A DNA stretch of 54,837 bases. Origin: Lentisphaerales bacterium (GTDB taxonomy: Bacteria > Verrucomicrobiota > Kiritimatiellia > SPBP01). The stretch is taken from positions 1-54,837 of the forward strand of contig JAQBFM010000079.1 of assembly GCA_032123355.1 (NCBI GenBank), written 5' to 3'. Positions 6,948 through 34,701 of this stretch are shown here, one piece after another. The notes under the pieces were generated by a model that was not told the origin of the DNA, searched no databases, and saw only the letters and a list, made by a program, of their open reading frames with translations. A program made the translations under genes and the position numbers. Numbering within the stretch: the stretch's first letter is position 1; each line of letters opens with the position of its first letter.

Positions 6948-7643
6948 ATGCCGAGGGATGTTGAAGATCTAATTGCTGTCCAGGTGTTGGACATCCGCAT
7001 ATTGAAGCTTGAGCAGGAACTACGTGACATCCCTGATCGTAAGCACCAGATCAGCCAGCGGAACAACGCCCTGAAGGAATCGTTGGAGTCAGAAAAAGAC
7101 TCGTCCAGGTCCGCGCGGGCACGAGCTGCGGAACTGGAACTTGAGGCCCGCAGCGAACGAGAAAAGATCGCCAAACTCCGCACGCAACAGATGCAGCTGA
7201 AGTCCAACAAGGAATTCAAGGTGATGGCGGATGAGATAGCCCTTGTGGAACGGCATGCAGCCAGTTTCGACGATAAGCAAATTGAGGCCCTTGAACAGGT
7301 CGAGCAGGTCGAGCAGCGGGTCCGGGATGTTGAAAACAACCTCAATAGTGCTGACGGAGAGATGCAATTGAGCGTGCAAGAACTCGACGCCCGTATCCGC
7401 GATATCGAGGCGGAGCTTGCAACGGTTCGTCAGGAACGAGATAAAACCGCCTCAGTGGTGAAGCCAGCCTGGCTGAAGAGTTATCGCCGGCTTTTCGATA
7501 ATAAGAAGGATGCCGTGGTAGTCTCTGCAGAAAACGGCTTTTGTGGAGGCTGCAACCTGAAGCTGCCGCCGCAAGTTACTCATGATGCCAGGCAGGGCGA
7601 CAATCTCGTAGATTGCCCATTCTGTCGTCGACTGCTCTATTGA
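6948..7643 (+). CDS. Coiled-coil protein with C-terminal C4 zinc ribbon (DUF164/CT398/HP0958-like)
   Basis: Long heptad-rich region then CGGCNLKLPPQ...CPFCRRLLY; this family often lies next to rnpB. Confidence 0.9.
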   Translation: MPRDVEDLIAVQVLDIRILKLEQELRDIPDRKHQISQRNNALKESLESEKDSSRSARARAAELELEARSEREKIAKLRTQQMQLKSNKEFKVMADEIALVERHAASFDDKQIEALEQVEQVEQRVRDVENNLNSADGEMQLSVQELDARIRDIEAELATVRQERDKTASVVKPAWLKSYRRLFDNKKDAVVVSAENGFCGGCNLKLPPQVTHDARQGDNLVDCPFCRRLLY

Positions 7644-7710: not shown

Positions 7711-8086
7711 GGTGGAGGCGTTCGGTCGCTCTTTCGCAACTGTGAAAGGGAGGAAAGTCCGGACTCCTCAGAGCAGGATGTCCTCGGGCTCGAAAGGGTA
7801 CCGGGGAGGCATTCCGTTAACCGGAATGGACGGACAGTGCCACAGAGAATATACCGCTCCGCATAATGCCTTGTGCACTATACGGAGTAAGGGTGAAAAG
7901 GTGGTGTAAGAGACCACCGGACCTTGCAGTAATGCGGGTTGCATGGCAAACCCCATCCGGAGCAAGATCAAATAGGGGACCCGAGGGGCTGCTCGCCCCG
8001 TTCCCGTGAAAGCGGGTAGGGTTCCGGGTAGATCGCATAAGATAAATGACCGACATCTGAACAGAATCCGGCTTATGTCCTCTGCC
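7711..8086 (+). ncRNA. rnpB: RNase P RNA (bacterial type A)
   Basis: gaggaaagtccggactc, agtgccacagagaa, gggtgaaaaggtggtgtaagagaccacc, ggcaaaccccatccggagcaag, aacagaatccggcttat; P1 ggtggagg/cctctgcc. Ends approximate. Confidence 0.96.
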
Positions 8087-9007
8087 TTTCGATACACTAA
8101 ATTAACCGGCAGGTCCGCCTGGGCCGTGCTGGCTGCTGCGTTGATTGCGTGTCTGCTATTCGCAGTAGCATATTTTCGGCTTCCGTCACTCTTGCCCGCA
8201 GGTCCAGGTGTTGAGGCAACGCCCTCCGACTGGGCTGCTGTTGTCCCGCTGCATCAATGCACGTGGTCGGTCTTCCAGACCACAGACGGCAAAACTGAGC
8301 CGGAAGCCGGTCCCTTATCGCAGCGCTTCAGGCTCGCCGGAACGCTCGTGTGGCTCGACCCTGACGGCACCGAGATCAAGAAAGCTATCCTCGCCGATCT
8401 CCAGGCCCGCACCGAAGAAATAGTCAGCGAGGGCACACTCGTCGGCAGCATAGAGGTCGTACGGATTCGACGTGAGAGCGTGTTGCTCAGAGATCGGGTA
8501 GGGGGGCAGGAAGAGGAACTTATTCTAACATACGCCCGCCCTACCCCTGAGCACGACCAGAACGATCCCCCTGCCGTGAGCGCCCCTGAGGGCCTTGAGC
8601 TCGGAGAAGGGGAACTCGTTATTTCAACCAACCGCTTTGGAGCCCAGGTCGGCGCAACCCGCTGGGTAATGTCCCGCGTCAGCGTCATGGGCTTTGTCGA
8701 CGAGATGTCCGAACATCCCGCTCGCGTCGCCAAGCTTTTCGATTCAATGAAGCCCGTCTATGAAGGCGACGGGCCTACGAGGCAGGTTTCCGGCTACGTG
8801 CTGCAACTCGAGGGCGAAGGTGACTTCTATCGCGATGTCGGCCTTAAGGAGGGCGATATTGTTCGCCGGGTGAACAATCTGCCCATGCAGAGCCAGCATC
8901 GCGCAATCTTCTGGATCGACCAGTTCCGGGCCAACAACGCTAATGCATTCCAGATCGACGTAGAGCGTGACGGGAAGGCCGTGCGCCTCGAATACCTCGT
9001 TCGCTAG
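8075..9007 (+). CDS. Type II secretion system protein C-like (N-terminal TM, HR domain, C-terminal PDZ-like)
   Basis: TM helix; FRLAGT..KAILAD...G..V.RIRRESVLL; GLKEGDIVRRVNN PDZ-like end; start uncertain (ATG 8075 or GTG 8126). Confidence 0.75.
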   Translation: MSSAFRYTKLTGRSAWAVLAAALIACLLFAVAYFRLPSLLPAGPGVEATPSDWAAVVPLHQCTWSVFQTTDGKTEPEAGPLSQRFRLAGTLVWLDPDGTEIKKAILADLQARTEEIVSEGTLVGSIEVVRIRRESVLLRDRVGGQEEELILTYARPTPEHDQNDPPAVSAPEGLELGEGELVISTNRFGAQVGATRWVMSRVSVMGFVDEMSEHPARVAKLFDSMKPVYEGDGPTRQVSGYVLQLEGEGDFYRDVGLKEGDIVRRVNNLPMQSQHRAIFWIDQFRANNANAFQIDVERDGKAVRLEYLVR

Positions 9008-20174: not shown

Positions 20175-21629
20175 TTACTCCTTCATTGACACAAGAAACT
20201 CAACGTTGCTCTTCGTCTTCTTCATTCGATTGACAATAAGCTCCATTGCCTCGACCGGCGGAATCCCGTTAATCGCCTTTCGCAGTATCCATATCTTACC
20301 CAGTTCATCTGGATGAACGAGCAGCTCTTCCTTGCGCGTACCCGACTTCTCGATATTGATCGCAGGGAATATTCTCTTGTCCACCAGATGCCTGTCCAGA
20401 CACAATTCCATGTTCCCGGTGCCCTTGAATTCTTCGAAGATCACCTCGTCCATCCTGCTTCCGGTATCAACCAGAGCAGTAGCAATGATTGTCAGGCTGC
20501 CACCCTCCTCGATATTCCTGGCAGCACCAAAGAAACGTTTCGGTTTCTGCAGCGCATTGGCATCTACACCACCCGACAGAATCTTGCCGCTGTGGGGCTG
20601 AAGGGTATTGTAGGCCCTTGCCAATCGCGTGATGCTGTCGAGGAGAATTACCACATCCTTGCCACACTCAACCATCCGCTTGGACATCTCGATAACGATT
20701 TCAGCAACCTGCACATGACGTTCCGGCGACTCGTCAAAAGTCGAGCTCAGCACATGGGCCTTGGTTGTTCGCTCCATGTCCGTCACTTCCTCAGGCCGTT
20801 CGTCAATCAGCAGAATGAACAGCTCAGCATCTGGATGATTAGTCGAGATACTGTTGGCCATCTTCTGGAGCAACACCGTCTTCCCCGTTCGAGGAGGTGC
20901 GACGATCAACCCGCGCTGTCCGAAGCCGATAGGAGTGAAGATGTCCATCACCCTCATCGATATTTCCTCGGGGTTCACCTCAAGGTTGGACCGCCTGTCC
21001 GGGAACAACGGAGTGAGATTCTCGAATGGCGTCTTGACTTTAGGCTTCTCGGGATCCTGGTCGTTGACTTCCTCCACCTTGAGCAGAGCGAAGAATCGTT
21101 CTTTTTCCTTAGGCTGCCGTATTTCGCCCCGTACGAGATCTCCTGTTCTCAATGCGAACCTTCTGATCTGCGAAGGCGACACATAGATATCCTCTGCACA
21201 GGGCACATAGTTGTTATACGGTGACCGCAGAAATCCGAACCCATCTGCCAGGATTTCGAGCACTCCTTCGCCGAACAGACGGCCGCTAGACCGTGCACTC
21301 GCCTTAAGAATCTCGAAAATCAGCTCATGTTTCCGGAGAGCTCCGAGGTCCGTAAGCCCCATCTCGGCCGCCATTTTGCTCAACTCAGGAACAGACATCT
21401 TTTGGAGTTCCGGCAAGCGCATATCGACGCCGAGCTTCTCGGGATCAATCGGGCCCCGCTGTTCCGCCCCGTCGTGCGGTGTTCCGTTTCCATTTCCGTT
21501 AGGAGGCGAGCTCGGCACATCCCTGTGTTCACCAACAGGTCGTCGATTGTCAACCCGATCCTTCTGCCTCGGGTGTCGGCTTCGTCGTCCTCGCACCTGC
21601 CAGTTCGGTTTATCGCTATTTCCAGCCAT
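20175..21629 (-). CDS. rho: Transcription termination factor Rho
   Basis: [57 protein letters not shown]; ~70-aa extra N-terminus. Confidence 0.99.
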
Positions 21630-21630
21630 A

Positions 21631-22221
21631 CTAACTCTCCAGCACGAGCTTCAATGCCCGCTCAGTTTGTTTTCTAAGCCCGTCCAGGCTTCCCGCATTG
21701 TATAGAACAACATCACTTCTCTTCATCTTCTCCGTCACATCATACTGGGCCGAGATTCTCCGTCTCGCTTCGGGCTCACCGAAACCCCTTTTCGCAAGAC
21801 GCTGCAACTGTTTCTCCAACGGAGCCGCAACGCACACTACCCTATCCCAACCCTCCTCGAACCCTCCTTCAAACAGCAAAGGCACGATGACCGTAGCAGC
21901 GAGAACAGGCTCATCGATCTGCTTCAGCCATTGCTCCCAACCGGCCTTCACGTGCGGGTGCACGATCCCGTTAAGAATGCCCCGTTGCTCGGATGATGAG
22001 AACACTATATCGCCGAGTCGATCTCGGTCTATTTCACCGCGCTCATCCAGGAGATCAGAACCAAATTCATCCACCACCTGGTCAAACACTGAACTGCCGC
22101 GGCGCATCACATCGTGGGCTATCGAGTCACAATCACAGACAGCCACATTCATCTCGCGCAGGAATGCCCCCACACGGCTCTTGCCGCAGGCAATACCACC
22201 AGTAACTGCAAGTTTCAACAT
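21631..22221 (-). CDS. coaE: Dephospho-CoA kinase
   Basis: [11 protein letters not shown]-loop, [20 protein letters not shown]. Confidence 0.96.
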
Positions 22222-22384
22222 GGCATGACGCTCAACGCCACACAATCCCCACTCCGCAAATCAGAACAAAGAATGGGTTCACAGTCCAACTGCCATACTC
22301 ATAGAACATGGAAACACTGCAGTTGAATGAAAACGAGATTCGGGAGTAACAAACAAAGACTTAATCAGTATCAGGATTGCCGTC

Positions 22385-22440: not shown

Positions 22441-23298
22441 CTATCCCCGCTGATCACGAACGAGGGTGTGCAACTCAAGCTCCTCGAGAAACGGATCGAG
22501 TGCCTCGCTATCTACCGGTTTAACTCCAATATCCGCCAGCTCAACACGGGTATCCAGGTCACGGCGAAGGCGAACAAGATCAACGTTCCTGTCCACGATC
22601 GCACGAGATTCCCTGAGAGCCTCACGAATCCGGACCGGCTCAACCTCTTCAATGTGCGCGTATACCTCCCTTACGCTCTCGTACTTGACGAGCAGTTTCG
22701 CCGCGGTCTTTGGGCCCACGCCGCGAACGCCGGGGATATTGTCGGACTGGTCCCCGACAAGCGCCAGCAAATCGGGGATCACCGCCGGCCCCACACCCAT
22801 CTTCGCCTTCACACCTGCCTCGTCAAGAACATGGTCTATAGCTGAGGGGCGGATCACGGTCACCCCGGCGCCTACGAGCTGTAATAGGTCCTTGTCCGAG
22901 CTGACGACGACGATCGCCATGTCATCTCGAGCGAACCTGGAAACGAGCGTTGCTATTACGTCGTCCGCCTCGCATCCATCCATCATCACTTGAGGGACTC
23001 CTGAAAGTGTCAGGTACCGCGATATTAATGGTATTTGCCCCCTGAGCTCGTCTGGCATAGAGGGCCGCTGGGCCTTGTACGACGCAAGTATCGCCATACG
23101 TTCCACGGGCAGCCCTCCGTCGAACGTGACAATCCAGTGTGTCGGTTGAAGTATCCGCCTGTACTGCTCAATCATGCGTGCAAAACCATACACGGCATTC
23201 GTGGGTATACCCGCTGAGGTCGACAGGGACCGGATCGCAAAGAACGCCCGATAAATGAGGCCGTGTCCGTCTATAATAGCAAGTTTTGCGGAAGACAT
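22441..23298 (-). CDS. Stand-alone 5'-3' exonuclease / flap endonuclease (PolA N-terminal domain only)
   Basis: IIDGHGLIYRAFFA, PTNAVYGF, TFDGG, EADDVIAT, SDKDLLQL, GDQSDNIPGV.GVGPKTA; stops without a Klenow domain. Confidence 0.92.
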   Translation of the reverse strand: MSSAKLAIIDGHGLIYRAFFAIRSLSTSAGIPTNAVYGFARMIEQYRRILQPTHWIVTFDGGLPVERMAILASYKAQRPSMPDELRGQIPLISRYLTLSGVPQVMMDGCEADDVIATLVSRFARDDMAIVVVSSDKDLLQLVGAGVTVIRPSAIDHVLDEAGVKAKMGVGPAVIPDLLALVGDQSDNIPGVRGVGPKTAAKLLVKYESVREVYAHIEEVEPVRIREALRESRAIVDRNVDLVRLRRDLDTRVELADIGVKPVDSEALDPFLEELELHTLVRDQRG

Positions 23299-23415
23299 CG
23301 GAGGCAACTGGTCCTGCAGGACGCACTATACAAACACCGAACCGCTCGTCGGTAGACACTACCTGCCGCCGGATTCGGCTAGTTTATGAAATGGAGAAAC
23401 GACAGGACGAAAAGC

Positions 23416-26250
23416 CTACGGATTCTCGTCGGCCCCGGCAGTCATTGACTCGGTCCCAACGGGGATTGCCTTCCCTGAAGGATCCACCAGTCGAGCTGTG
23501 ACGAAAATAAGCAGGTTTCTCTTTGCGCTGGATTTCTGCTTGGACTTAAACAGACCGCCGATCAGCGGCAGCTCACCAAGGAAGGGAATTCTGTCATCAG
23601 TGCTATTCAAATCCTCGGAGATCAGCCCGCCCATGACCACCGTTGCGCCGTTGTAGACCTTAACTGTGGTGGAAACACTTCTTGCATGAAAGAAAGGCAT
23701 CAGCATCGGAATCCGCGATCCATCCCCAAGTTCATATCCGTAATCATGCCACTCCGGAGGAGTCACGACTTCCGGAGCAAGCGTAAGCTGGATAATACTG
23801 TTCCCCTGCGACAACTCTGGAAGAACCGTCAAAATGACACCCACTTCGCGTGTCTCGAACGTATCCGGCACAACCACCGTCGGCATCACACCGCCCCAGG
23901 CATCGCCACCGGCTATCTGGCCTTGCGTGACTCTGTATTCCGTCGGATAGATGTACTCCGTTACAACGCGAACCGTCGCTTCCAGGCCGGGCTGCGTGGT
24001 AACCTTCGGGGCAGACAGCAGATCAGCATGCCCGCTTTGCTCAATGGCGTGGAGAATCAGCGCCAACTCGGGATTAGTCAACACAGACTGGAAAGTCATG
24101 ATGCCGCTCGAGCCACCCGATGTGCCTGCCGTAGCGCCGATGCCCAGGGTGTTATAACGCAGGTTCTTGGTGAATCCCCCCTGCGTCGCGTTCTCTTGCA
24201 CGAGCATGCGCGGCCGCGCATTCAGCGCTCCCCCGGCGCCCTTTTTGGTCGCAACTTCGAAATCATCCGTAAGCAGCCACTCAAGTCCGAGCTCTTCCAG
24301 GTCAGTCTGCGCAATATCTACGAACCTGGTTTCTATCTCAACCTGCGGCTGCACGACATTAAGTTCCTGCAGAACTCGCTCAAAACTCGCAAGGTTCCCC
24401 TCCGTATTTGCCACAATCAGCTTGCCGATACTGCTATTATAACTGATTGAAGTGCCAATCGGGAACTGGACACCAAGCTGAATGAAATATGCCTTGAGAT
24501 CGCCTGTATCTGTATCCAGCGACGTCGGGGCAAGTGTAATGAATCCGCCACCATCATCACCGCCACCCATGGAAGCGTCTGCCCTCAACCTGGAAATGAC
24601 CGTGGGGTCGACCGCGTAGAACCGCGTCACAATTGTCCCCTCTGCAGCGTTCTGAGGAATAATCATAACGATGTTCTTCTCAACGCGAAACTTGAGGTTC
24701 GCCACCTCGGTTATGATCTTGATCGCATCGAGCAACGTTACGTATCGTGCCTGGAACGACACAGTTCTCTCTTCTTCGTCGCCGATATTGAGGATGATAT
24801 TAACGCCCCTGGCGAGTTCATCTTCTGTCGATTTGTCTGCTGCTATGCTGGCTTCCACCAGAAACTCGATAACGTCCTTGATATTCGCCTCGCGGAAGGA
24901 TATCTCAGGAATCCGAATCGATTCCATTTTATGCCGCAGCTTATCTTCCTCTCTCACGACGATGACCGATGTGTTTGAGCCATATGTTGTTATGCCGGTG
25001 TCAAGATAATGGTTATAGTCCCGTGGGTTCCAGGTCTCCCGCACGTCAGCTATTCGTTCGCGAGACATGGCGTCGCGCTCTGATGTTTCGCGACCATACC
25101 TGCGATTTTGAATACCTTTGAGACGATTGATGGCACTGTCGTTTGATGGGTCGATTGCCAGAACCATCTTAAGGCTCTCGGCCGCCTCCTTGAACTCATC
25201 AACCCGCATGTGTTCATCCGCCTTGCGGATCCACAGCTCGGCCCGTCTTTGCTTCTCCTGGTAGTCGCTGGCAACTCTTCTGCGAACACTATCACGTTCA
25301 GCAATAGACTGTTGCTCAGTAATACGCGCCTCAATCCGTTCCACCAGGCGTTCGGCACCCAGGAACTTCCTGTTTCTTGCCAGCGCCCTTTGAGCCATCA
25401 CGAGCGCCCCATCTTCGCCCGTCAGTTCGCCTTCATTTAGCAGATCCAGCGCCAGGTAGTACTCGGCAATCATTGCGCCGTCATTCGCCCTGCGAAAAGC
25501 ATCTGCAGTCTCCAGCCTCTTCGGAAGATGCGCTTCTGCATTAAGGAAATGATGCAGCGCCGTCTTGTAGGATCTCTCCATGAGTGCCTGTTCGGCAAGT
25601 TCCAGGTCATGCATTCCCTGGATCTCCACAGCGCGGTTACGAATAACCGCTTCCGCTTCCGGACCTTCCATTGTCTCGGCTTCGACCTCCAGCTTGGGAC
25701 CGCGCACCAACCGACGATCAGGCGAAGTTACAAATCCGCCGGGACCCCGCCGCATTCCATCTTCGCCTGCATCTCCACCAGAATCACTGCTAAGAATCTT
25801 TCGCAGGTCTTCCATATCGTCTGTCAAAGGCGTCGGCTGCATCTCCCCCGAGCCCTCTTCCACATCACCGAGCAAAGCTTCTTCATCAGCATCACCGAGC
25901 AAAGCTTCTTCATCAGCAAAGTCAGCATTGACTCCGTCGACAGCGTCCCGCGGAATCTCGCCTTCTGGCTCAATCGGTTCATCGAACATGTCGGGCTCAT
26001 CGAACCCGCCGGCATCGTCCGTTCCCCAGTCGTCAGAGCCGTCAGTTACGGGCTCATCAAAGCCCATGTCTTCGACTGCTCCCTTTTCCGGAGCAACAAC
26101 TTCGGTAGCCGGTTCGGAATCGAAGTCATCGCCGAGCAGATCCGCGAGCAATGCGTCGGAGTCATCCTGTGCAACAACAGGATGGAAAACTATTATCGCG
26201 AGCAAGATCGCAATAACCAGCAACGCTGCATATCGCATATGAACAGACAT
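23416..26250 (-). CDS. Secretin (GspD/PilQ family; Amuc_1098-like) with acidic N-terminus and TPR-like region
   Basis: Signal peptide; acidic low-complexity region; QVEIETRFV, LLSAPKVTT, FETREVGV.L.V.P, IPFLGELPLIGGLFKS, RNLLIFVTARLVDP; start 26250 or 26238. Confidence 0.92.
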   Translation of the reverse strand: MSVHMRYAALLVIAILLAIIVFHPVVAQDDSDALLADLLGDDFDSEPATEVVAPEKGAVEDMGFDEPVTDGSDDWGTDDAGGFDEPDMFDEPIEPEGEIPRDAVDGVNADFADEEALLGDADEEALLGDVEEGSGEMQPTPLTDDMEDLRKILSSDSGGDAGEDGMRRGPGGFVTSPDRRLVRGPKLEVEAETMEGPEAEAVIRNRAVEIQGMHDLELAEQALMERSYKTALHHFLNAEAHLPKRLETADAFRRANDGAMIAEYYLALDLLNEGELTGEDGALVMAQRALARNRKFLGAERLVERIEARITEQQSIAERDSVRRRVASDYQEKQRRAELWIRKADEHMRVDEFKEAAESLKMVLAIDPSNDSAINRLKGIQNRRYGRETSERDAMSRERIADVRETWNPRDYNHYLDTGITTYGSNTSVIVVREEDKLRHKMESIRIPEISFREANIKDVIEFLVEASIAADKSTEDELARGVNIILNIGDEEERTVSFQARYVTLLDAIKIITEVANLKFRVEKNIVMIIPQNAAEGTIVTRFYAVDPTVISRLRADASMGGGDDGGGFITLAPTSLDTDTGDLKAYFIQLGVQFPIGTSISYNSSIGKLIVANTEGNLASFERVLQELNVVQPQVEIETRFVDIAQTDLEELGLEWLLTDDFEVATKKGAGGALNARPRMLVQENATQGGFTKNLRYNTLGIGATAGTSGGSSGIMTFQSVLTNPELALILHAIEQSGHADLLSAPKVTTQPGLEATVRVVTEYIYPTEYRVTQGQIAGGDAWGGVMPTVVVPDTFETREVGVILTVLPELSQGNSIIQLTLAPEVVTPPEWHDYGYELGDGSRIPMLMPFFHARSVSTTVKVYNGATVVMGGLISEDLNSTDDRIPFLGELPLIGGLFKSKQKSSAKRNLLIFVTARLVDPSGKAIPVGTESMTAGADENP
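25863..25916. repeat. Exact 27-bp tandem duplication inside the secretin gene
   Basis: catcaccgagcaaagcttcttcatcag x2, giving ADEEALLGD twice. Confidence 0.95.
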
Positions 26251-26308
26251 CAATCCAGTCACGTTCTTATTGCGCAAGAAATCGCCTACCCTAGAAACCA
26301 CCCTTGGC

Positions 26309-27370
26309 CTAGCGCCCAATTGGCACCTCCTTATTCGTGACGAAGTCAAAAAGTATCACCTTCTCTTTCTTCGCGTCAATATCTTTGACTAAGTATTTCT
26401 GCCCTTTTATGAGAACTTCCTGGCCCACCTTGATGACTATGACTTCGTCGGTGGGAACATACCTCAGTTTTGCTGACTTTTCCCAGTCTCCCTGCTTACG
26501 ATTCATCACCAGCACTATCTTCTTCTCACCCGCTTGAAGCGTCAGTTCTGACACATCTTCCTTCTTGATTGTGTTAAGGGATGGGGTCGGCACATCCATC
26601 GTCTTTTGAACGAAGTCAGCTATAGTAAAGCTCAACACCTGTTCGCCCATTCTCTTCCAGTATGTCTGTCCTTCTACGTGGTTGATAGAGAAGATCATCT
26701 TCTTGTCCTCACCCCTCATGTAGCTCTTGAAAATCATATTGAACGCCGCAACCCTTATTTCGCCAGCTACGAGTTTGCCAAATGCGTAAGCCGGGGGCGC
26801 GCTCTCGGCATCCGTCGGATCCGACTCGACCCCGTATTCCATGGTCGATCGAAACTCCTCTAGATTCGTAAAGCCATCGTCATCAGGATCCTCGGAAGCA
26901 TCATCACTGTTGTTGGAATCCAGCTGATATTTTGCCTCCCACTCATTCGACATGCCGTCGCCGTCGTCATCACCTTCCGGTGGAGACTCCGACCCCGGTT
27001 GCTCTTTGCCGCAGAAAGGACACACCAGGGCCAGGTACTCGATCGGTTTCTTGCACGCCATGTTCACACAGCTGACCCGCGTGGGTGGAACAGTGAGGCT
27101 TTCAGTGGAAACAATAGAGAGCTGAAACGGCTTCTGGATCTTCCCAAGCGCGTCAGCAAATGGTTCGTGCGCTATCGCTTCTACACGCGGAAACTCGGGC
27201 CGGAGTCCTGTCAGCCGTTGTTGAAACTCTTTCTGATCCTTCCGCGCGACCGCAGCTCGTACACCAAGCAGAAATATGGAAGCAATCAGCCCAACGAGAA
27301 CGGCAACGACCGCCATCTTCTCGTAGTGCCCTTTGAAAGCAAATCCCAGTTTGTTAAGATCAAGACTCAT
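26309..27370 (-). CDS. Pilus-like system protein (Amuc_1099-like) with Cys cluster and DxDxDG Ca-binding repeats
   Basis: N-terminal TM; CVNMAC...CPFC; DDDGDGMSNEWE..DPDDDGFTNLEEF; position between Amuc_1100-like gene and secretin. Confidence 0.7.
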   Translation of the reverse strand: MSLDLNKLGFAFKGHYEKMAVVAVLVGLIASIFLLGVRAAVARKDQKEFQQRLTGLRPEFPRVEAIAHEPFADALGKIQKPFQLSIVSTESLTVPPTRVSCVNMACKKPIEYLALVCPFCGKEQPGSESPPEGDDDGDGMSNEWEAKYQLDSNNSDDASEDPDDDGFTNLEEFRSTMEYGVESDPTDAESAPPAYAFGKLVAGEIRVAAFNMIFKSYMRGEDKKMIFSINHVEGQTYWKRMGEQVLSFTIADFVQKTMDVPTPSLNTIKKEDVSELTLQAGEKKIVLVMNRKQGDWEKSAKLRYVPTDEVIVIKVGQEVLIKGQKYLVKDIDAKKEKVILFDFVTNKEVPIGR

Positions 27371-28380
27371 GATTGGGGCCCGACCTGACTTTCTGACGGC
27401 TTCAGGAACGTATACACATCTATCGTTATTGTGACGGTCGCGTTCGCTTCCTTTGCTCTTCCGCTGACTACACGCTGATCCCGATATCTCTTATCATCCT
27501 GCATCTCCGCGTCCTCTGCATCCTCAGACAGCTTGTCCACATCCGTGAACAGATTGTCGGCATCGCCACCGCGCGCCCTTCTGGCCCAGCGAGCACGGGG
27601 ATCCACCTTAGCCTCGGTCTCCTGGACAACGTCCGAACTGGCGGTTATTTCCATGTTTGCAACGACAATAAACATCGGATCCCTGGCAATAGCGTTCAGG
27701 GACTCGACCAAGGCTGCCTCCTTGGTACCGAACTCGAAGATAAACCGTTCCCTCGCATAGATGCTCTCGAAAATATCAACCTCGGACTCCGCGCCTTCCG
27801 CAACAGCAGTTGCTTCAGTCCTGCCTCTTGGCCTGGATGTCGATTCGAACTCCTCACGTTTGATTGCAACCAATTCCTTGATGCCAGCTTTATACAGAAG
27901 AGAGCACAACTGTTCCACCATCCTCAGCTGCTTGGTAAGTCGCGGCACGGCATTTCGAGAGGGCGGTCGACCATCATCGTACGACTGAAAACTGAACGCG
28001 AACCTTTCTGGCAACACAATCTTCGATCCTGACGCTTCCGTTCGCAGATCGCTCTGCATCTTGTTCAAGCTTGCTAACCACTGCAGGGGCGATCCACCCT
28101 CCTTCGGTTCCTGCACCTGCATTTTCCTCATGCTATCCAGCAACGACTTCATTTCCTTCTGGTAATCGTCACGATTCTGCAGGATCGCATCGACGTTTGC
28201 CTGTTCCGGGAAAGGATTCCTGTGATAGATCGATTCCAGTGCAGACCACGCAAGGTTCAGCCCGCTCGAGGAAGAGCCCAGTTTGGCCCGTTCTCTAAGC
28301 AGTAGAATCCCGATCAGCGCCAGCACAACAACTTCCACAGACAGGACAACCATCAGGGCTATCTTTGTTTTGCGTCTCAC
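27367..28380 (-). CDS. Amuc_1100 family pilus-like protein (PilO-like)
   Basis: N-terminal TM, coiled coil, FAFSFQSY...P...LTKQL..V..L...GIKEL pattern; position after pilM. Confidence 0.72.
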   Translation of the reverse strand: MRRKTKIALMVVLSVEVVVLALIGILLLRERAKLGSSSSGLNLAWSALESIYHRNPFPEQANVDAILQNRDDYQKEMKSLLDSMRKMQVQEPKEGGSPLQWLASLNKMQSDLRTEASGSKIVLPERFAFSFQSYDDGRPPSRNAVPRLTKQLRMVEQLCSLLYKAGIKELVAIKREEFESTSRPRGRTEATAVAEGAESEVDIFESIYARERFIFEFGTKEAALVESLNAIARDPMFIVVANMEITASSDVVQETEAKVDPRARWARRARGGDADNLFTDVDKLSEDAEDAEMQDDKRYRDQRVVSGRAKEANATVTITIDVYTFLKPSESQVGPQS

Positions 28381-28392
28381 GATTCTAAGATC

Positions 28393-30030
28393 CTACAGCT
28401 CCATCGGGTTCTTCAACGCTGCGCGTATTGTAAAGCCCAGGCTGTACTCATTCGCAGTCACGATCCGCTCAACGTCAACATCGTCTGTAAAGAAAGAGCT
28501 GGTCTTCAGGGCATTGCCGAATTCACCGACCGTCGCAGCGTCGGGCACTTTGTCGACGAATCCTACGCCGGTAATCCGGAGTTGGCCGACGAACTGCTTG
28601 CCCTCGCGCGTCTCAAGCACGGGGTTCACGGAAGAGATCCACATTCCCTCAACTGTTCTGCTCTTAAGGTCATCCAGGATCTCCATCCATTGAGTGCGAG
28701 CGCTTACAAGATAAAGCAGTCTCTCTGCCTTCTTTTGAACCACAAGCGCCTCGGACATGTATTGATCCAACTGTCCCTGGACCATATCGAAGGCCACCGA
28801 CCCCTGCTCAATCTTTGCCAGATTGCGTTCGGATGTCACCCTGAGTCGCAGGAAATAATACCACCAGACAGAGACCGTCAGCACGAGCCCGACCGCGACA
28901 GCAATAAGAAAAGGAATCTTTGATTTGAACAGCTTGCGCGCCACAAGATGCTGCGGCATGAGATTAATCTCCATCGGACAGGAGAACAGCTTTCTCAATG
29001 CCACCCCGGTCACCTCGCCAAGCAGGTGTATTTTAGTCGCAACATCCTCAGAGGGAATACTGTTTGATACGGTGATGCGCTCGAACGGATTCAAGAACTC
29101 AACATCCAGCCCGAGTTTCTCACGAAGGAAGGTGTCCGTCTGCGGCATTACGCATGTGCCTCCGCAAAGCAGTAGAAGTGATGGCTTCCTTCCATTCTGC
29201 TGACTGCGATAGAAATTGATGGAACGGCTCACTTCAGCATGAAGCCGCGTCATTACGCTTCGTACCGTCTTCGATACCCGGTTGACAACGTGACTCTCTG
29301 CGCCGTCTACGGCCCCGCCAAAAGCCACGAAGGCATGCGCAAGCTTGAGTTCCTCGGCATCCTTGAAGGGAATCTCGAACTCCTTCATGAGCTCCTGCGT
29401 GATCGTGTTGCCGGCTATCGGAATACTCCGGGTAAAGCACCGTTCCTTCTCAATAAAGATCAGGTTGGTTGTTCTGGCCCCCATGTCCATCACGAGCGTG
29501 CAGGTATCGAGCTCGCCGTAGTTGAACCGCACGAGGTTATATAACGCCAGTGGCGCAACATCCACGACTTCCGGATCCAGCCCGGCTGCCTCGACACAAT
29601 CAGTGATCTTCTTCACCACGTCCGTCTTCATGGCAACAAGCATCACGCTCTGAGAACCGTCGGAGCTGTCGATCAGCTGATAATCCCACACCACCTCGTT
29701 TATCGGAAATGGCACATTCTGCTGGGCTTCATACTGAACTATCTGGTCGACCTTATCGTGGGCAGCCGGGGGAAGCTTGATAAAACGCGGGAACACATCC
29801 TTGCCCGAAACCGACAGTAAGACGGGGCCGGGTTTGATGTCCTGCTCCCTCATCATCTCGCGGACAGCCGATACGATATACGCCGAAGTATCCAACTCGT
29901 CACCCGGATCAACTCCGAGCGGAGCGATTGCATACTTGAGCAGCTTCAGGCCCATCGGCTTCAGCTGCTCAAACAAGGCGATCGTCAGCTGACTTGCGCC
30001 GATATCCAGGCTGATAATATCATTCGGCAT
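28393..30030 (-). CDS. pilM: Type IV pilus assembly protein PilM with fused PilN-like C-terminus (Amuc_1101-like)
   Basis: SLDIGAS, EAQQNVPFP, DMGARTT, IPIAGNTIT, RSINFY, LCGG; then INLMP (PilN N-terminal motif), TM helix and periplasmic domain. Confidence 0.88.
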   Translation of the reverse strand: MPNDIISLDIGASQLTIALFEQLKPMGLKLLKYAIAPLGVDPGDELDTSAYIVSAVREMMREQDIKPGPVLLSVSGKDVFPRFIKLPPAAHDKVDQIVQYEAQQNVPFPINEVVWDYQLIDSSDGSQSVMLVAMKTDVVKKITDCVEAAGLDPEVVDVAPLALYNLVRFNYGELDTCTLVMDMGARTTNLIFIEKERCFTRSIPIAGNTITQELMKEFEIPFKDAEELKLAHAFVAFGGAVDGAESHVVNRVSKTVRSVMTRLHAEVSRSINFYRSQQNGRKPSLLLLCGGTCVMPQTDTFLREKLGLDVEFLNPFERITVSNSIPSEDVATKIHLLGEVTGVALRKLFSCPMEINLMPQHLVARKLFKSKIPFLIAVAVGLVLTVSVWWYYFLRLRVTSERNLAKIEQGSVAFDMVQGQLDQYMSEALVVQKKAERLLYLVSARTQWMEILDDLKSRTVEGMWISSVNPVLETREGKQFVGQLRITGVGFVDKVPDAATVGEFGNALKTSSFFTDDVDVERIVTANEYSLGFTIRAALKNPMEL

Positions 30031-30046
30031 GTTGGTCCCTGCCGCA

Positions 30047-30727
30047 TCAACGGCGGATGGTCTCAAAATCCCAGTAGTTCACGTAGGCAAAAGGTGTTTC
30101 CCCGCGGTTCAGAAGCAAGCCGGAGCGTAATGTGACCTGGTCACTGTTCCGGATCTCCTGCGACTTCCACCACTGCCCATCGGCCAGACGGGCCTGAGGA
30201 CTCTCGTCCGACTTCCACACTGTTTCAGTACCGTATGTTATTTCAATGGCAACGGCAACGATATCGCCCAGCTTCGCGATCGTGCGAGGATGCAGGTACA
30301 TCTCGCTCATGTGATCCTTGCCATCGCCGACATCAGTGTATGTAACATCGCCCTCAAGAAGTGAATACGGTGTCTCCGCATCTTTATCCTTGGTAAGCAT
30401 GAGCACATAGAAACGGCACGAGAGCGTATTCATCCATTCAGGCTTTGAATCGTAGACTACCCTGACCCTTCCCCAATCCGGAGAGCGGGCCTTCCTGGAC
30501 GGCTCCGAATTGCGAATATTGTACTCAGGCGCCCGAACCTGAATGGACTGAGATAGCGTTTGAATCTTGAGATTCTCAGAGGCGTCTCCCTCTGATCCCT
30601 TTACCCCGGAGGCGGCGGATCCTCCGCGAACAGGCCTTCGTATCTGTCCCATCGACTGATGAATAGCAACAACGCACGCCACAGCCAATGAGATTATCAA
30701 TACATGCCGCAATCCACACTTATGCAT
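30047..30727 (-). CDS. Secreted protein, Amuc_1102-like first gene of the pilus-like locus
   Basis: Signal peptide, SD aaggag; beta-rich domain (W..V.V.Y, FYVL, G.VTY, MYLHP); assignment mainly from gene order. Confidence 0.6.
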   Translation of the reverse strand: MHKCGLRHVLIISLAVACVVAIHQSMGQIRRPVRGGSAASGVKGSEGDASENLKIQTLSQSIQVRAPEYNIRNSEPSRKARSPDWGRVRVVYDSKPEWMNTLSCRFYVLMLTKDKDAETPYSLLEGDVTYTDVGDGKDHMSEMYLHPRTIAKLGDIVAVAIEITYGTETVWKSDESPQARLADGQWWKSQEIRNSDQVTLRSGLLLNRGETPFAYVNYWDFETIRR

Positions 30728-31552: not shown

Positions 31553-31969
31553 TCAGCGTCGTCTTCTGCGCGCGCGGGTTCTTGCTTCGCTCACAACAAT
31601 TCGCCGTCCGCCGACCTCTTGCGAATTCATCCCCTTGATCGCCGCGTGCCCATCCTGCGCGCTGATCATGGTCACAAATCCATAGCCTTTTGAAGCGCCC
31701 GACTTCTTGTTCTCAACTATTCGGATCGATCCGACACCCCCGAACTTTGAGAACAAGTTCCTTACCTGGGACTCACCCGCATCGTACGGCAGATTGCCAA
31801 TATAGAGCTCCATTCCACCTGCGGGCTTGCCACGAGACTCCGACCGCTTCGCGCCTGAACCTGATCCCGGGATCAGCCTCCCAAGAACTACGCCGGCGAC
31901 AAACCATGCAAGCGAAGCGACTGCGAGGATATACTCAGTGTTGTTTCTCACAATTTCCTGAATTGCCAT
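31553..31969 (-). CDS. RRM RNA-binding protein with N-terminal transmembrane helix
   Basis: ILAVASLAWFVAGVVLG hydrophobic helix; RNP2 LYIGNL, RNP1 KGYGFVTM; Arg-rich tail. Confidence 0.88.
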   Translation of the reverse strand: MAIQEIVRNNTEYILAVASLAWFVAGVVLGRLIPGSGSGAKRSESRGKPAGGMELYIGNLPYDAGESQVRNLFSKFGGVGSIRIVENKKSGASKGYGFVTMISAQDGHAAIKGMNSQEVGGRRIVVSEARTRARRRRR

Positions 31970-32016: not shown

Positions 32017-34101
32017 CTATCGCGCTTCGAGGAAGCCCTCAAGCTTGCGAATTCGCGTGGGATGCCTCAACTTGCGGAGTGCCTTTGCCTCAATCTGCCG
32101 GATTCTTTCTCGGGTCACCGCAAACTGTTTCCCGACCTCTTCAAGGGTCCTGGAATAACCGTCTGCTAATCCGAACCTGAGGTTCAGCACCTCCCTCTCT
32201 CTCGGCGTCAGCGTATGAAGCACATCCTTCAGCCTCTCCTTCAACAGGCTGTAGGCTGTCATCTCGGATGGGTTCTCAGCGGACTTATCTTCAATAAAGT
32301 CGCCAAAGTGCGCATCCTCTCCATCACCTACCGGGCTCTGCAGCGAAATCGGCTGTTGAGCCATCTTATATACGGCCCTGACCCGTTCCACCGGCAGGCC
32401 CATCTCATCAGCTGCCTCTTCTGGGGTTGGCTCCCGACCAAGCTCCTGGACAAGCCTCTTCTGGACCCGCAGCAGCTTGTTGATCGTTTCGATCATGTGA
32501 ACGGGGATCCTGATCGTCCGGGCCTGGTCTGCAATCGCCCTCGTTGCAGCCTGACGAATCCACCATGTAGCGTAGGTGCTGAACTTGTAACCACGGCGGT
32601 ACTCAAACTTCTCCACCGCCTTCATCAGTCCCGTATTGCCTTCCTGGATCAGGTCAAGAAATGAAAGACCGCGATTCATGTATTTCTTTACGATACTGAT
32701 CACCAACCGCAGATTCGCCTCGACCATCTCCGTGCGTGCCCGTTCGCCCTTTCGCATGTCAGCCTTCAGCGTCTTGAAGGCCTCGTCAAGATCCGCCGGC
32801 GTCATGCAAGCTTCGAGCGCATGCCCCTTTATCGCCGTCTCGAACTGCTTGATTCCCTCTGCTCGTTTCTTACTCTTTCGTTTCGCAGTGAACATCTCCA
32901 GCTCTGTCATGTCCTTGCGAAAAGCAACGTAAATTCCATCAATTGCCGCCTGCGTCAGTGACTCCACAACTTTCTGCTTGAAGTAAAGAGAGTCATACAA
33001 TGCCGACGTCTTCTGTCGCGCTTTCTCCAACAGCTTACCTCGCCGCGTCCGCTCACTGTTCGACATCTGTTTCCGCAGCGTTGCCATGAATGCCTTTGCC
33101 TGGATCTCGCGAGCCCGTACTACACTCCTCTTAAGACTAGGAAGCTTCTTTATGTAATCCCACCGGCTGTCGACATACTTATCCTGAATAACCCTGTCGA
33201 ATCTTTCTCCCCCGCTCTCGATCCTTTCAACAAGATCAAGGTACATATCTCCCGCACATCCCATCCGGTTAAAGAGGCCCCTCGTGGATATCTCGGCATC
33301 CTCGATTCGCTTGCAGATCTCGACTTCCTGCTCGCGCGTCAATAGCGGTACCTGTCCCATCTGGTGGAGGTACATCCGGATCGGGTCGTCGAACATGTCG
33401 AACCGTTCGGCTCGAGCAGTCTTCTCATCCTTTTCCGCCTGCTTCTTGTGCTTCTCGACCTCTGACTCCTCAATTATCTCAATCTCCATTTCGCGGAGAA
33501 GGAGCAGGTACGCCTCGAGCTCTTCGGGGTCGACAACACTGTCCGGCAGGGCCTCGTTGATGTCCTGGAAAGTGAGATAGCCCTGATCTTCGGCAAGACG
33601 GATCAGCTCTTTAAGCTTCTGGTTCCGCTCCGCCTTCTTCTGATCCGCCTGCTCCTCGGTCATCTGCTCTTCGTCGACCACCTTAAGATCGATACGCCCA
33701 CTCCTGGCCGATTTCTTGCGTGCCAGAGACTTAGTGGCAGCAGCCGAGCGCTTAAGAAGCTTTTGCTTCTTTACGGATCCTGCCCGAGCGGAGATCTTCT
33801 TCGCATCTGACCCAGCCTTCTTGCGTTTCAGCTTGGCCACTACGACTTTCCTGCCGACGGCAACTTTCCGCTTCTTTGCGGCGATGGGCTCGCGTGCAGA
33901 TTTCTTGGGCTTGCTTTTCGTGGGACGCACAGTCTTCTTCCGTGCAACCGATCCTGCACGGCTCTTCTTCGCACTCTTCCGAGTCACCCCGGATTTAGAG
34001 ATCTTCTTCCGCCCTGACGCCTTGGCCTTACTGACTCTCTTCGGAGCAGCCGCGCTTCGCCGCTTCTGCTTCTTGCCTTTTGGTTTCGAGCTCTTTGCCA
34101 T
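32017..34101 (-). CDS. rpoD: RNA polymerase primary sigma factor RpoD
   Basis: [61 protein letters not shown]; start set at ATG 34101 after SD ggag. Confidence 0.97.
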
Positions 34102-34701
34102 TATAACTCCATCAAACGCCAGGATTACGGATACACCCCACCCATTATACATCCCAATGGGACGAACGCCAAGCAATCGATTAGTTTGCCATCTGAGGAA
34201 ACGCTTCTCAAGCAGTAAAACCGAAAAAGAATGAGGCCAGAATCTGACGGACATCGGGCACTTTCCCGCCATACCAAGCACATATCCGCATCTGAAAACG
34301 GGAAACTGAACCTTGTACTCTAATGCTCCACACCAATCGCCAAGGCGGCGATGATGCCCACACAACGGACCGGCCGGTCGTACAGAAACATGCCGGTCAT
34401 ACAACATACACTCCAAATACACTCCAAACATGCGGCAAAACACAGACCCGCTGTTGCTGCGCTTCCCGTCCGATGAATGCGATTCAAAGGCGTCAATATG
34501 CTGTCAACATCCGCCGGTTGAACATTCGTTTGCGCGGTACCCCGCCGAAATCGCAATGTGACTAACCACAAAAAGACATCCGAAAGACAGGCTGAAAGCT
34601 TGACGCATGTGCCGCTTACGAGTAACAATGCAGACTGAATTATGGCATGGGTTCACACAATCCAGCTAGGCTTGTGTGTTGTGTAGACAAGGAGAACTAC
34701 A

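Follow-up and report, generated by a model that had tools for sequence, protein, structure and literature searches.

A distant copy of the Akkermansia Amuc_1098-1102 (MUL2) locus in a marine-sediment bacterium, and a candidate motor elsewhere in its genome

Amuc_1100, a TLR2-interacting protein, and its neighbours have mostly been studied as host-active probiotic factors of one gut species, Akkermansia muciniphila. What is such a gene set when it is found outside that genus, and what might drive its products? The question is raised by a stretch of 54,837 nucleotides (nt), here called the window, on contig C79 of a metagenome-assembled genome (MAG) labelled as a Lentisphaerales bacterium; all positions given below are those of the whole window. 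Between 23416 and 30727 it carries an operon in which an earlier reading of the letters and their translations, made without database searches (the sequence-only reading), had recognised the order of the Amuc_1098-1102 cluster. That identification is correct, and the five genes are distant orthologues of the Akkermansia Amuc_1102-1098 cluster. We consider it probable that they were vertically inherited as distant orthologues of the MUL2 locus and its secretin, and that their products form the alignment complex across the envelope in a type IV filament machine whose motor is encoded elsewhere, most likely on contig C37.

Part of this picture is already known, namely the cluster itself, its role in mucin uptake, its conservation beyond Akkermansia and the five NCBIfam models that describe its proteins. 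Amuc_1098-1102 were described in 2017 as abundant envelope proteins, possibly forming pili-like structures (PMC5332112). The cluster goes by the name MUL2; a preprint relaying earlier work calls it important for mucin acquisition, and notes that Amuc_1100 resembles PilO/PilN (bioRxiv 10.64898/2025.12.30.696933). According to a 2026 paper in the ISME J, aquatic Akkermansiaceae keep the synteny of MUL2 with the secretin, coaE and rho, other Verrucomicrobiales often keep it and Chthoniobacterales less so, and in Methylacidiphilales it was undetected; the coaE-rho flank is drawn in the Fig. 2B legend, and attachment to fucose-rich glycans by a type IV-like pilus is proposed (PMC13174399). The sequence-only reading had treated both mechanism and substrate as unsettled, which is partly outdated, since the cluster is the published MUL2 locus for mucin acquisition and synteny outside Akkermansia has been reported (PMC13174399; bioRxiv 10.64898/2025.12.30.696933).

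The operon consists of five co-oriented open reading frames (ORFs) on the minus strand, running from 30727 to 23416 exactly where the sequence-only reading had placed its five tightly spaced genes, and neighbours overlap or are separated by no more than 12 nt if the earliest possible start codons are assumed. Consensus scans for promoters and terminators gave counts no better than those in shuffled sequence. In NCBIfam, all five proteins match their Amuc counterpart best, and we compared these scores with the curated cut-off, that is, the NCBIfam equivalog bit-score threshold. In gene order, the 226-aa protein matches NF042424 (Amuc_1102_rel) with 50.5 bits against a cut-off of 55 (E 1.8e-13), the 557-aa protein NF045709 (Amuc_1101_fam) with 497 against 650 (E 1e-148), the 337-aa protein NF038287 (Amuc_1100_fam) with 96.4 against 180 (E 2e-27), the 353-aa protein NF042425 (Amuc_1099_fam) with 52.5 against 50 (E 5e-14) and the 977-aa protein NF042912 (Amuc_1098_fam) with 364 against 750 (E 1e-108), so that only Amuc_1099_fam exceeds its cut-off. 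Pfam recognises PilM_2, Secretin, a weak TPR and a weak TSP3 repeat among the five, and has no match for the first and third proteins. Domain, profile and fold evidence upholds the earlier descriptions of all five products, as a secreted beta protein, a PilM-PilN fusion, a PilO-like protein, a transmembrane (TM) protein with calcium-type repeats and a secretin.

Fold evidence comes from the third gene (27367-28380, minus strand), which encodes an Amuc_1100-like, PilO-like bitopic protein with an N-terminal TM helix, a coiled coil and a ferredoxin-like alpha-beta core that bears a disordered acidic insert at residues 182-202. An AlphaFold2 model, built from an alignment with 50 orthologues, has a confidence score (pLDDT) of 81.8. 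All of its top 10 Foldseek matches in the PDB are Amuc_1100 crystals (6LAD/6LAF/6KNY), with E values of 6e-11 to 1e-9 and TM-scores on the target of 0.72-0.82, and the PilO structures 3JC8 (chain Oa), 2RJZ and 5UVR rank after them. A profile of the orthologues likewise matches the Amuc_1100 PDB sequences over nearly their full length (E 1e-11). No PilO family model matches any of the operon proteins, so the resemblance to PilO is one of fold only.

The second gene (28393-30066, minus strand) encodes the Amuc_1101-like PilM-PilN fusion. Its 557 residues are counted from a TTG at 30066; the true start is probably the ATG at 30030, since a 99%-identical database protein (P0001) has 545 aa. A PilM actin-like domain (residues 20-359) is followed by a TM helix (about 383-405) and a PilN-like periplasmic domain (about 463-549). 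The first part is recognised by the PilM model TIGR01175, at 168.8 bits above its cut-off of 133, and by PilM_2 (PF11104, E 4e-38). For the PilN part the C-terminal 188 aa match PF05137 below its gathering score (E 0.0036), yet along the whole model (2-76 of 78), and among the 120 listed fusion homologues 4 are annotated with the domain; we accept the fusion because of this full-length sub-threshold match together with the four homologues that bear the domain. More than 5,000 homologues of the fusion are found at E <= 1e-10.

The first gene (30047-30727, minus strand) encodes an exported beta protein like Amuc_1102 (MUL2A), with a conserved beta domain and a conserved C-terminal motif, TPFAxVNxDDYExIK. 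The sole match of its sequence in the PDB is 7DSZ, Amuc_1102 (E 0.011), and with a profile built from 47 orthologues the match improves to E 4.3e-19 (41-205 against 21-196). We considered whether this protein is a prepilin and rejected the idea: in an alignment of the window protein with 65 orthologues, none of the 66 N-termini shows the G|F-T-L-x-E motif or a lipobox, and they carry Sec/SPase-I signals instead, with cleavage near AxA|Q in the orthologues.

The fourth gene (26309-27370, minus strand) occupies the PilP/GspC position and encodes the Amuc_1099-like bitopic protein. An alignment of 48 orthologues shows a TM helix (within residues 16-55), a four-cysteine ribbon, two DxDxDG repeats and a C-terminal region (residues 200-353) that is all beta. 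The cysteines (C101, C106, C117 and C120; 26996-27079 in the window) form zinc-ribbon-like knuckles within the conserved ribbon motif RVxCxxCxRPIPYxAxxCPFCxxxQP, and zinc-ribbon families are matched by 14 of the 48 orthologues. The repeats (residues 134-172; 26855-26971) are TSP3/EF-hand-like, with TSP3_bac matches in 30 of the 48 (best E 8e-13) and weak EF-hand matches, confined to the repeats, in a PDB profile search. The sequence-only reading had this protein replace PilP. Gene position and bitopic topology agree with that; a PilP-like or GspC-like fold or profile does not emerge from any search. None of the 48 orthologues matches a PilP or GspC model in Pfam. Foldseek of a well-predicted AlphaFold2 model (pLDDT 90.8) against the PDB gave no fold match (best E 0.03, TM about 0.1), a whole-chain search that can miss a single domain, and Pfam on the isolated C-terminal domain and the PDB profile search also gave nothing PilP-like. 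Since no fold or profile matches, the replacement of PilP is a statement about position and topology.

The fifth gene (23416-26349, minus strand) encodes the Amuc_1098-like secretin, 977 aa from a TTG at 26349; its start is probably the ATG at 26250, which yields the signal peptide MSVHMRYAALLVIAILLAIIVFHPVVAQ. An acidic low-complexity region, a TPR-like helical region (TPR_1, E 0.0017), periplasmic N-domains and the pore domain follow one another. Residues 233-962 cover positions 29-803 of the 805 in NF042912, and the pore domain is matched by PF00263 (E 1e-33) at residues 768-956, which correspond to 23482-24048 in the window. Pfam finds no AMIN domain on this protein. Within the acidic region lies an exact 27-bp tandem repeat (2.1 copies, 25863-25918) that encodes ADEEALLGD twice. 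Several RNA contigs break at this repeat, which is probably an effect of the repeat on their assembly.

Is the resemblance to the Akkermansia cluster more than a coincidence of gene order? As reference we used a closed 2.65-Mb Akkermansia-type genome (G078), whose Amuc_1100 match is above the curated cut-off. Its locus (L109) reads 1102 (238 aa), 1101 (612), 1100 (317), 1099 (337), 1098 (907), coaE and rho, the Amuc models score above their cut-offs there, and the gene order in the window is the same, as the sequence-only reading had stated. A scan with one genome per species found at least 588 related loci, of which we examined the best 80 (42-52% identity), all in MAGs labelled Kiritimatiellia, Lentisphaerae, Victivallales or Verrucomicrobiota. 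In 80/80 of these the order 1102-1101-1100-1099-1098, followed by the exonuclease gene exo, coaE and rho, is kept wherever the contig reaches; contig ends limit the counts of the flank after the secretin to 50/80 for exo, 38/80 for coaE and 32/80 for rho. Chance is thereby excluded, because the same five-gene order recurs in all 80 as far as their contigs reach.

Conservation extends through the phylum. Of 401 phylum genomes, 310 match the Amuc_1100 family model, nearly always in single copy, as do 154 of 184 genera and 113 of the 132 other genomes of the window's own class; only 24 of the 310 matches exceed the cut-off. A restriction to PVC (Planctomycetes-Verrucomicrobia-Chlamydiae) bacteria, proposed in the sequence-only reading, was tested within the phylum and against 14 control genomes. 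One genus of the same class, g4, has lost the locus: all ten of its genomes (G011, G017, G038, G089, G092, G203, G215, G224, G239 and G305; one of them closed, 3.9 Mb) are without an Amuc_1100-type match, and their best Amuc_1101_fam score is below 39 bits. An Amuc_1101-type orthologue is also absent from part of genus g19. Genus g41 has the fusion (456-464 bits), and the 1100-like gene alone escaped detection.

The host is a deep-branching marine-sediment MAG, and the earlier guess of a non-Akkermansia host is borne out. Whether the tree is built from the fusion or from four concatenated proteins, the window forms a long deep branch among MAGs labelled Kiritimatiellia or Lentisphaeria, far from the Akkermansia type, and marine sediment and aquatic metagenomes are the source of the DNA runs that contain the locus. 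The locus is also represented in RNA: metatranscriptome contigs of at least 99% identity, from four RNA runs in three studies, cover parts of all five genes. The first gene and the 5' part of the secretin gene are covered best, with the proviso, which counts against a strong claim of expression, that contig depth is a poor measure of it and that DNA carry-over into RNA contigs is possible.

If the operon encodes an alignment complex and a pore, where is the motor? The statement of the sequence-only reading that the window lacks a pilin, a PilB/PilT ATPase and a PilC holds for the whole of contig C79, which has no T2SSE, T2SSF or prepilin-motif match. The host genome as a whole has 14 T2SSE ATPase matches (8 long, of GspE/PilB type, and 6 short), 18 T2SSF domain matches and 28 prepilin-motif ORFs, along with 9 secretin matches, about 9 platform genes and 2 prepilin peptidases. 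At 3.35 Mb it is very rich in type IV filament genes, which lie on contigs C37, C40, C57, C60, C72, C100, C153 and C201; the last of these holds a separate GspD-GspE-GspF cluster.

A smaller genome from another class narrows the choice. G315 (1.8 Mb, 98% complete) has one secretin only, of Amuc_1098 type (334 bits), with Amuc_1101-type and Amuc_1100-type genes next to it. The genuine T2SSE ATPases of G315 are limited to a PilB-PilT-PilB triplet, two MshEN-domain extension ATPases flanking one retraction ATPase, with a T2SSF platform gene (PilC) directly after it (L107, G315:C20, 5313-11319). The best matches of the three ATPases in the host genome are collinear, at C37:7669-12319 between gatAB and trxB/msbA, with 50, 58 and 52% identity, and the best host match of the G315 PilC is at C105:74054-75325 (39%). 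The triplet, which recurs across classes of the phylum, is also found in G009, G021 and G170, and in Akkermansia-type genomes PilB and PilT each occur as a tandem pair of genes. The cluster on C37 is the likely motor because G315 combines a single secretin with a single PilB-PilT-PilB-PilC cluster whose orthologues are collinear on C37. From this one minimal MAG and from the conserved clustering, we infer that the operon may supply the alignment complex and the pore of a retractile, type IVa-like machine, with the C37 cluster as its motor.

Such a machine could be arranged as follows. The cytoplasmic PilM actin-like domain would be joined by one TM helix to the periplasmic PilN-like domain, in a GspL-like architecture, with the Amuc_1100-type protein as its PilO-like partner. 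A third bitopic protein, with its Cys ribbon, calcium-type repeats and beta domains, would take the PilP/GspC position, and the large TPR-bearing secretin would provide the outer-membrane pore. The Sec-exported Amuc_1102-type beta protein, of a fold that has been reported as pilin-like, would belong to the set too. Motor, platform and prepilins would be encoded elsewhere, the likeliest motor being PilB-PilT-PilB on C37 with PilC on C105, and the putative product would be a retractile filament for adhesion to, or acquisition of, extracellular polymers.

Several observations weigh against reading the operon as a MUL2 orthologue that serves a type IV filament machine. Since four of the five proteins score below their curated NCBIfam cut-offs, they are distant orthologues by synteny, profile and fold, and not family members by the NCBI naming rule. 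Pairwise identity to the Akkermansia-type operon proteins is low, at 24-34%: 25% for 1102, 34% for 1101 (PilM part only), 27% for 1099 and 24% for 1098, with no BLAST match for 1100 (the flanking coaE and rho products reach 36% and 48%). The operon has no linked pilin, ATPase or platform gene, and the Amuc_1102-like protein is not a canonical pilin, since it has an ordinary Sec signal and no prepilin signal. The motor is not assignable by exclusion in the host genome, which has too many systems, and the argument from G315 is one from a single MAG that is 98% complete. The locus is dispensable, as its true absence from 10/10 genomes of genus g4 attests. Finally, the host genome has 2-3 sulfatase genes, so a role in sulfated-glycan foraging is unsupported; we had also considered the host as a sulfated-glycan specialist, an idea that these few genes leave without support.

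How do other explanations compare? The strongest of them, which we still consider unlikely, is that the operon belongs to an exporter like the type II secretion system (T2SS), in which a short pseudopilus pushes folded proteins through the secretin and the fusion, the 1100-like and the 1099-like proteins act as GspL, GspM and GspC. The fused PilM-TM-PilN-type architecture is indeed that of GspL, the secretin scores slightly higher with GspD (TIGR02517, 145.4 bits) than with PilQ (TIGR02515, 132.7 bits), the window also contains an orphan GspC-like gene, and the Akkermansia-type G078 has two secretins yet only two long ATPases, in tandem. However, the operon proteins leave the GspL, GspM and GspC models of NCBIfam and Pfam unmatched while PilM passes its own cut-off, and the host keeps its GspD-GspE-GspF genes in a cluster of their own on C201. 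The conserved motor cluster also holds a PilT-type retraction ATPase, and T2SSs are not known to have one. Published Akkermansia genetics, as cited in PMC13174399, favour uptake over secretion.

Less probable again is an inward polymer gate that works without a conventional pilus, with the 1102-like protein as a binding or plug part and PilMN, 1100 and 1099 as a gating scaffold. It would account for the finding that 0/80 loci carry a pilin, ATPase or platform gene in the operon, for the Sec export of a 1102-like protein that is no prepilin, and for the deficiency in mucin acquisition reported for MUL2 mutants in work cited by PMC13174399 and bioRxiv 10.64898/2025.12.30.696933. Against this, the minimal genome G315 retains a full PilB-PilT-PilB-PilC set beside its single secretin, and the operon encodes no energy source for gating. 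PilM domains, moreover, couple to PilB/PilC-type motors. A canonical pilMNOPQ operon made odd-looking by divergence, the finding by which the sequence-only reading would have been refuted, is highly improbable, for all that its PilM exceeds the TIGR01175 cut-off, its homologues are named 'type IV pilus assembly protein PilM' in public sources and its order parallels M-N-O-P-Q: it is contradicted by the NCBIfam and Pfam scores and by the lack of a PilP fold or profile, in that the Amuc models score best for all five proteins, PilM and PilN are fused, the PilO and PilP models are unmatched, PilQ and GspD stay far below their cut-offs (284.35 and 351.35 bits), an additional conserved first gene (1102-like) is present, and the protein in the P position has a Cys ribbon and TSP3 repeats and no PilP fold.

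The reading that we prefer, a vertically inherited MUL2-type alignment complex and pore with a motor elsewhere, can be carried further, to a proposal that we hold only tentatively and think clearly less likely than its opposite. The Amuc/MUL2-type module might be the core secretin system that all Verrucomicrobiota sensu lato inherited vertically from their ancestor, fixed beside coaE-rho, run by PilB-PilT-PilB-PilC with two extension ATPases and one retraction ATPase, and the sole type IV filament machine in minimal genomes; it would then be a general retractile device for polymer capture and uptake, not a mucin-specific adaptation of Akkermansia. If so, the clade-specific protein in the PilP position, with its Cys ribbon and Ca repeats, would represent a novel type of secretin coupler.

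The genes around the operon lie outside this machine. On its 3' side, and on the same strand, NCBIfam identifies a stand-alone 5'-3' exonuclease with the PolA N-terminal domain only (22441-23307, minus strand), the dephospho-CoA kinase gene coaE (21631-22245, minus strand) and rho (20175-21629, minus strand), and these three are a conserved syntenic flank. On its 5' side come a divergent DJ-1 gene, a gene for an RNA recognition motif (RRM) protein and rpoD. The RRM protein (31553-31969, minus strand) has an N-terminal hydrophobic helix and is encoded directly 3' of rpoD (32017-34443, minus strand), an 808-aa ORF with a long lysine-rich N-terminal extension; the rpoD-RRM pair also stands ahead of the operon in locus L105.

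About 14 kb from the operon and on the opposite strand lies the orphan GspC-like gene, which the sequence-only reading had located at 8075 and which corresponds to the ORF at 8006-9007 (plus strand). Its product has a TM helix, a middle domain and a C-terminal PDZ-like domain. Its best NCBIfam matches are to three GspC models, all below threshold, among them NF041515 (GspC_delta, E 2.3e-14, 53.8 bits against a cut-off of 150, 97-333 against 92-311 of 311) and TIGR01713 (GspC, E 1.8e-7); Pfam has no match for it. The ORF adjoins lepB and lepA. Nearby, at 6948-7643 (plus strand), is a gene for a CdsZ/CT398-like protein with a coiled-coil hairpin and a C4 zinc ribbon (NF047363, E 8e-31, below the cut-off), a family that in Chlamydia is a partner of secretion and sigma-54 components.

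What does the window add to the published cluster? It places the same locus and flank in the Kiritimatiellia/Lentisphaeria-type radiation, proposes a candidate motor and brings in lineage-specific features, namely the Cys ribbon and second Ca repeat of the 1099-like protein, the acidic extension of the secretin and the inserted exonuclease gene. With its 2-3 sulfatases, the host also provides evidence against a function bound to mucin or sulfated glycans in this lineage. The locus adds to the evidence for an ancient envelope machine that free-living PVC bacteria have widely kept, in this case a marine-sediment lineage with hardly any sulfatases. Exclusion in a 1.8-Mb genome suggests a pairing with the conserved PilB-PilT-PilB(-PilC) genes, which provides a concrete candidate motor that can be tested, and for structural work the protein in the PilP position, with its Cys ribbon and Ca repeats, offers a defined target.

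None of these additions changes the kind of system, which is the described Akkermansia-type cluster in a distant copy. With Amuc_1098-1102 of A. muciniphila (MUL2, amuc_1099-1102, plus the secretin Amuc_1098) the window shares all five genes with their order and orientation, the coaE-rho flank, the 1100 fold (6KNY/6LAD/6LAF) and the 1102 profile (7DSZ). The Akkermansia-type 1099 has no cysteine and one DxDxDG, whereas the window's 1099-like protein has a four-Cys ribbon and two repeats; the window's secretin is 70 aa longer, with its acidic repeat region ahead of the family-model match; and where the Akkermansia-type locus runs secretin-coaE-rho, the window has a 5'-3' exonuclease gene inserted before coaE. 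The hosts differ too, that of the window being a marine-sediment MAG with few sulfatases and not a mucin specialist. The type IVa pilus proteins PilM-PilN-PilO-PilP and PilQ of Pseudomonas aeruginosa and Myxococcus xanthus (3JC8, 2RJZ) resemble the operon in a PilM above its cut-off, a secretin, a parallel gene order, PilN-like and PilO-like periplasmic domains of ferredoxin type and a PilB/PilT/PilC motor elsewhere in the host genome; the window differs from them in its PilM-PilN fusion, the lack of a PilP fold or profile match, the extra exported first gene and a secretin with a TPR/acidic N-terminus that scores far below the PilQ cut-off. In comparison with the GspC-GspD-GspL-GspM set of T2SSs, which leaves its GspL, GspM and GspC models unmatched by the operon, and from which the window differs also by a probable motor cluster with a PilT retraction ATPase, the likeness is one of architecture: a GspL-like single polypeptide with actin-like, TM and periplasmic parts, a GspM-like bitopic partner, a GspD-related pore and, in the 1099-like protein, a third bitopic protein in a GspC-like position that probably reaches the secretin.

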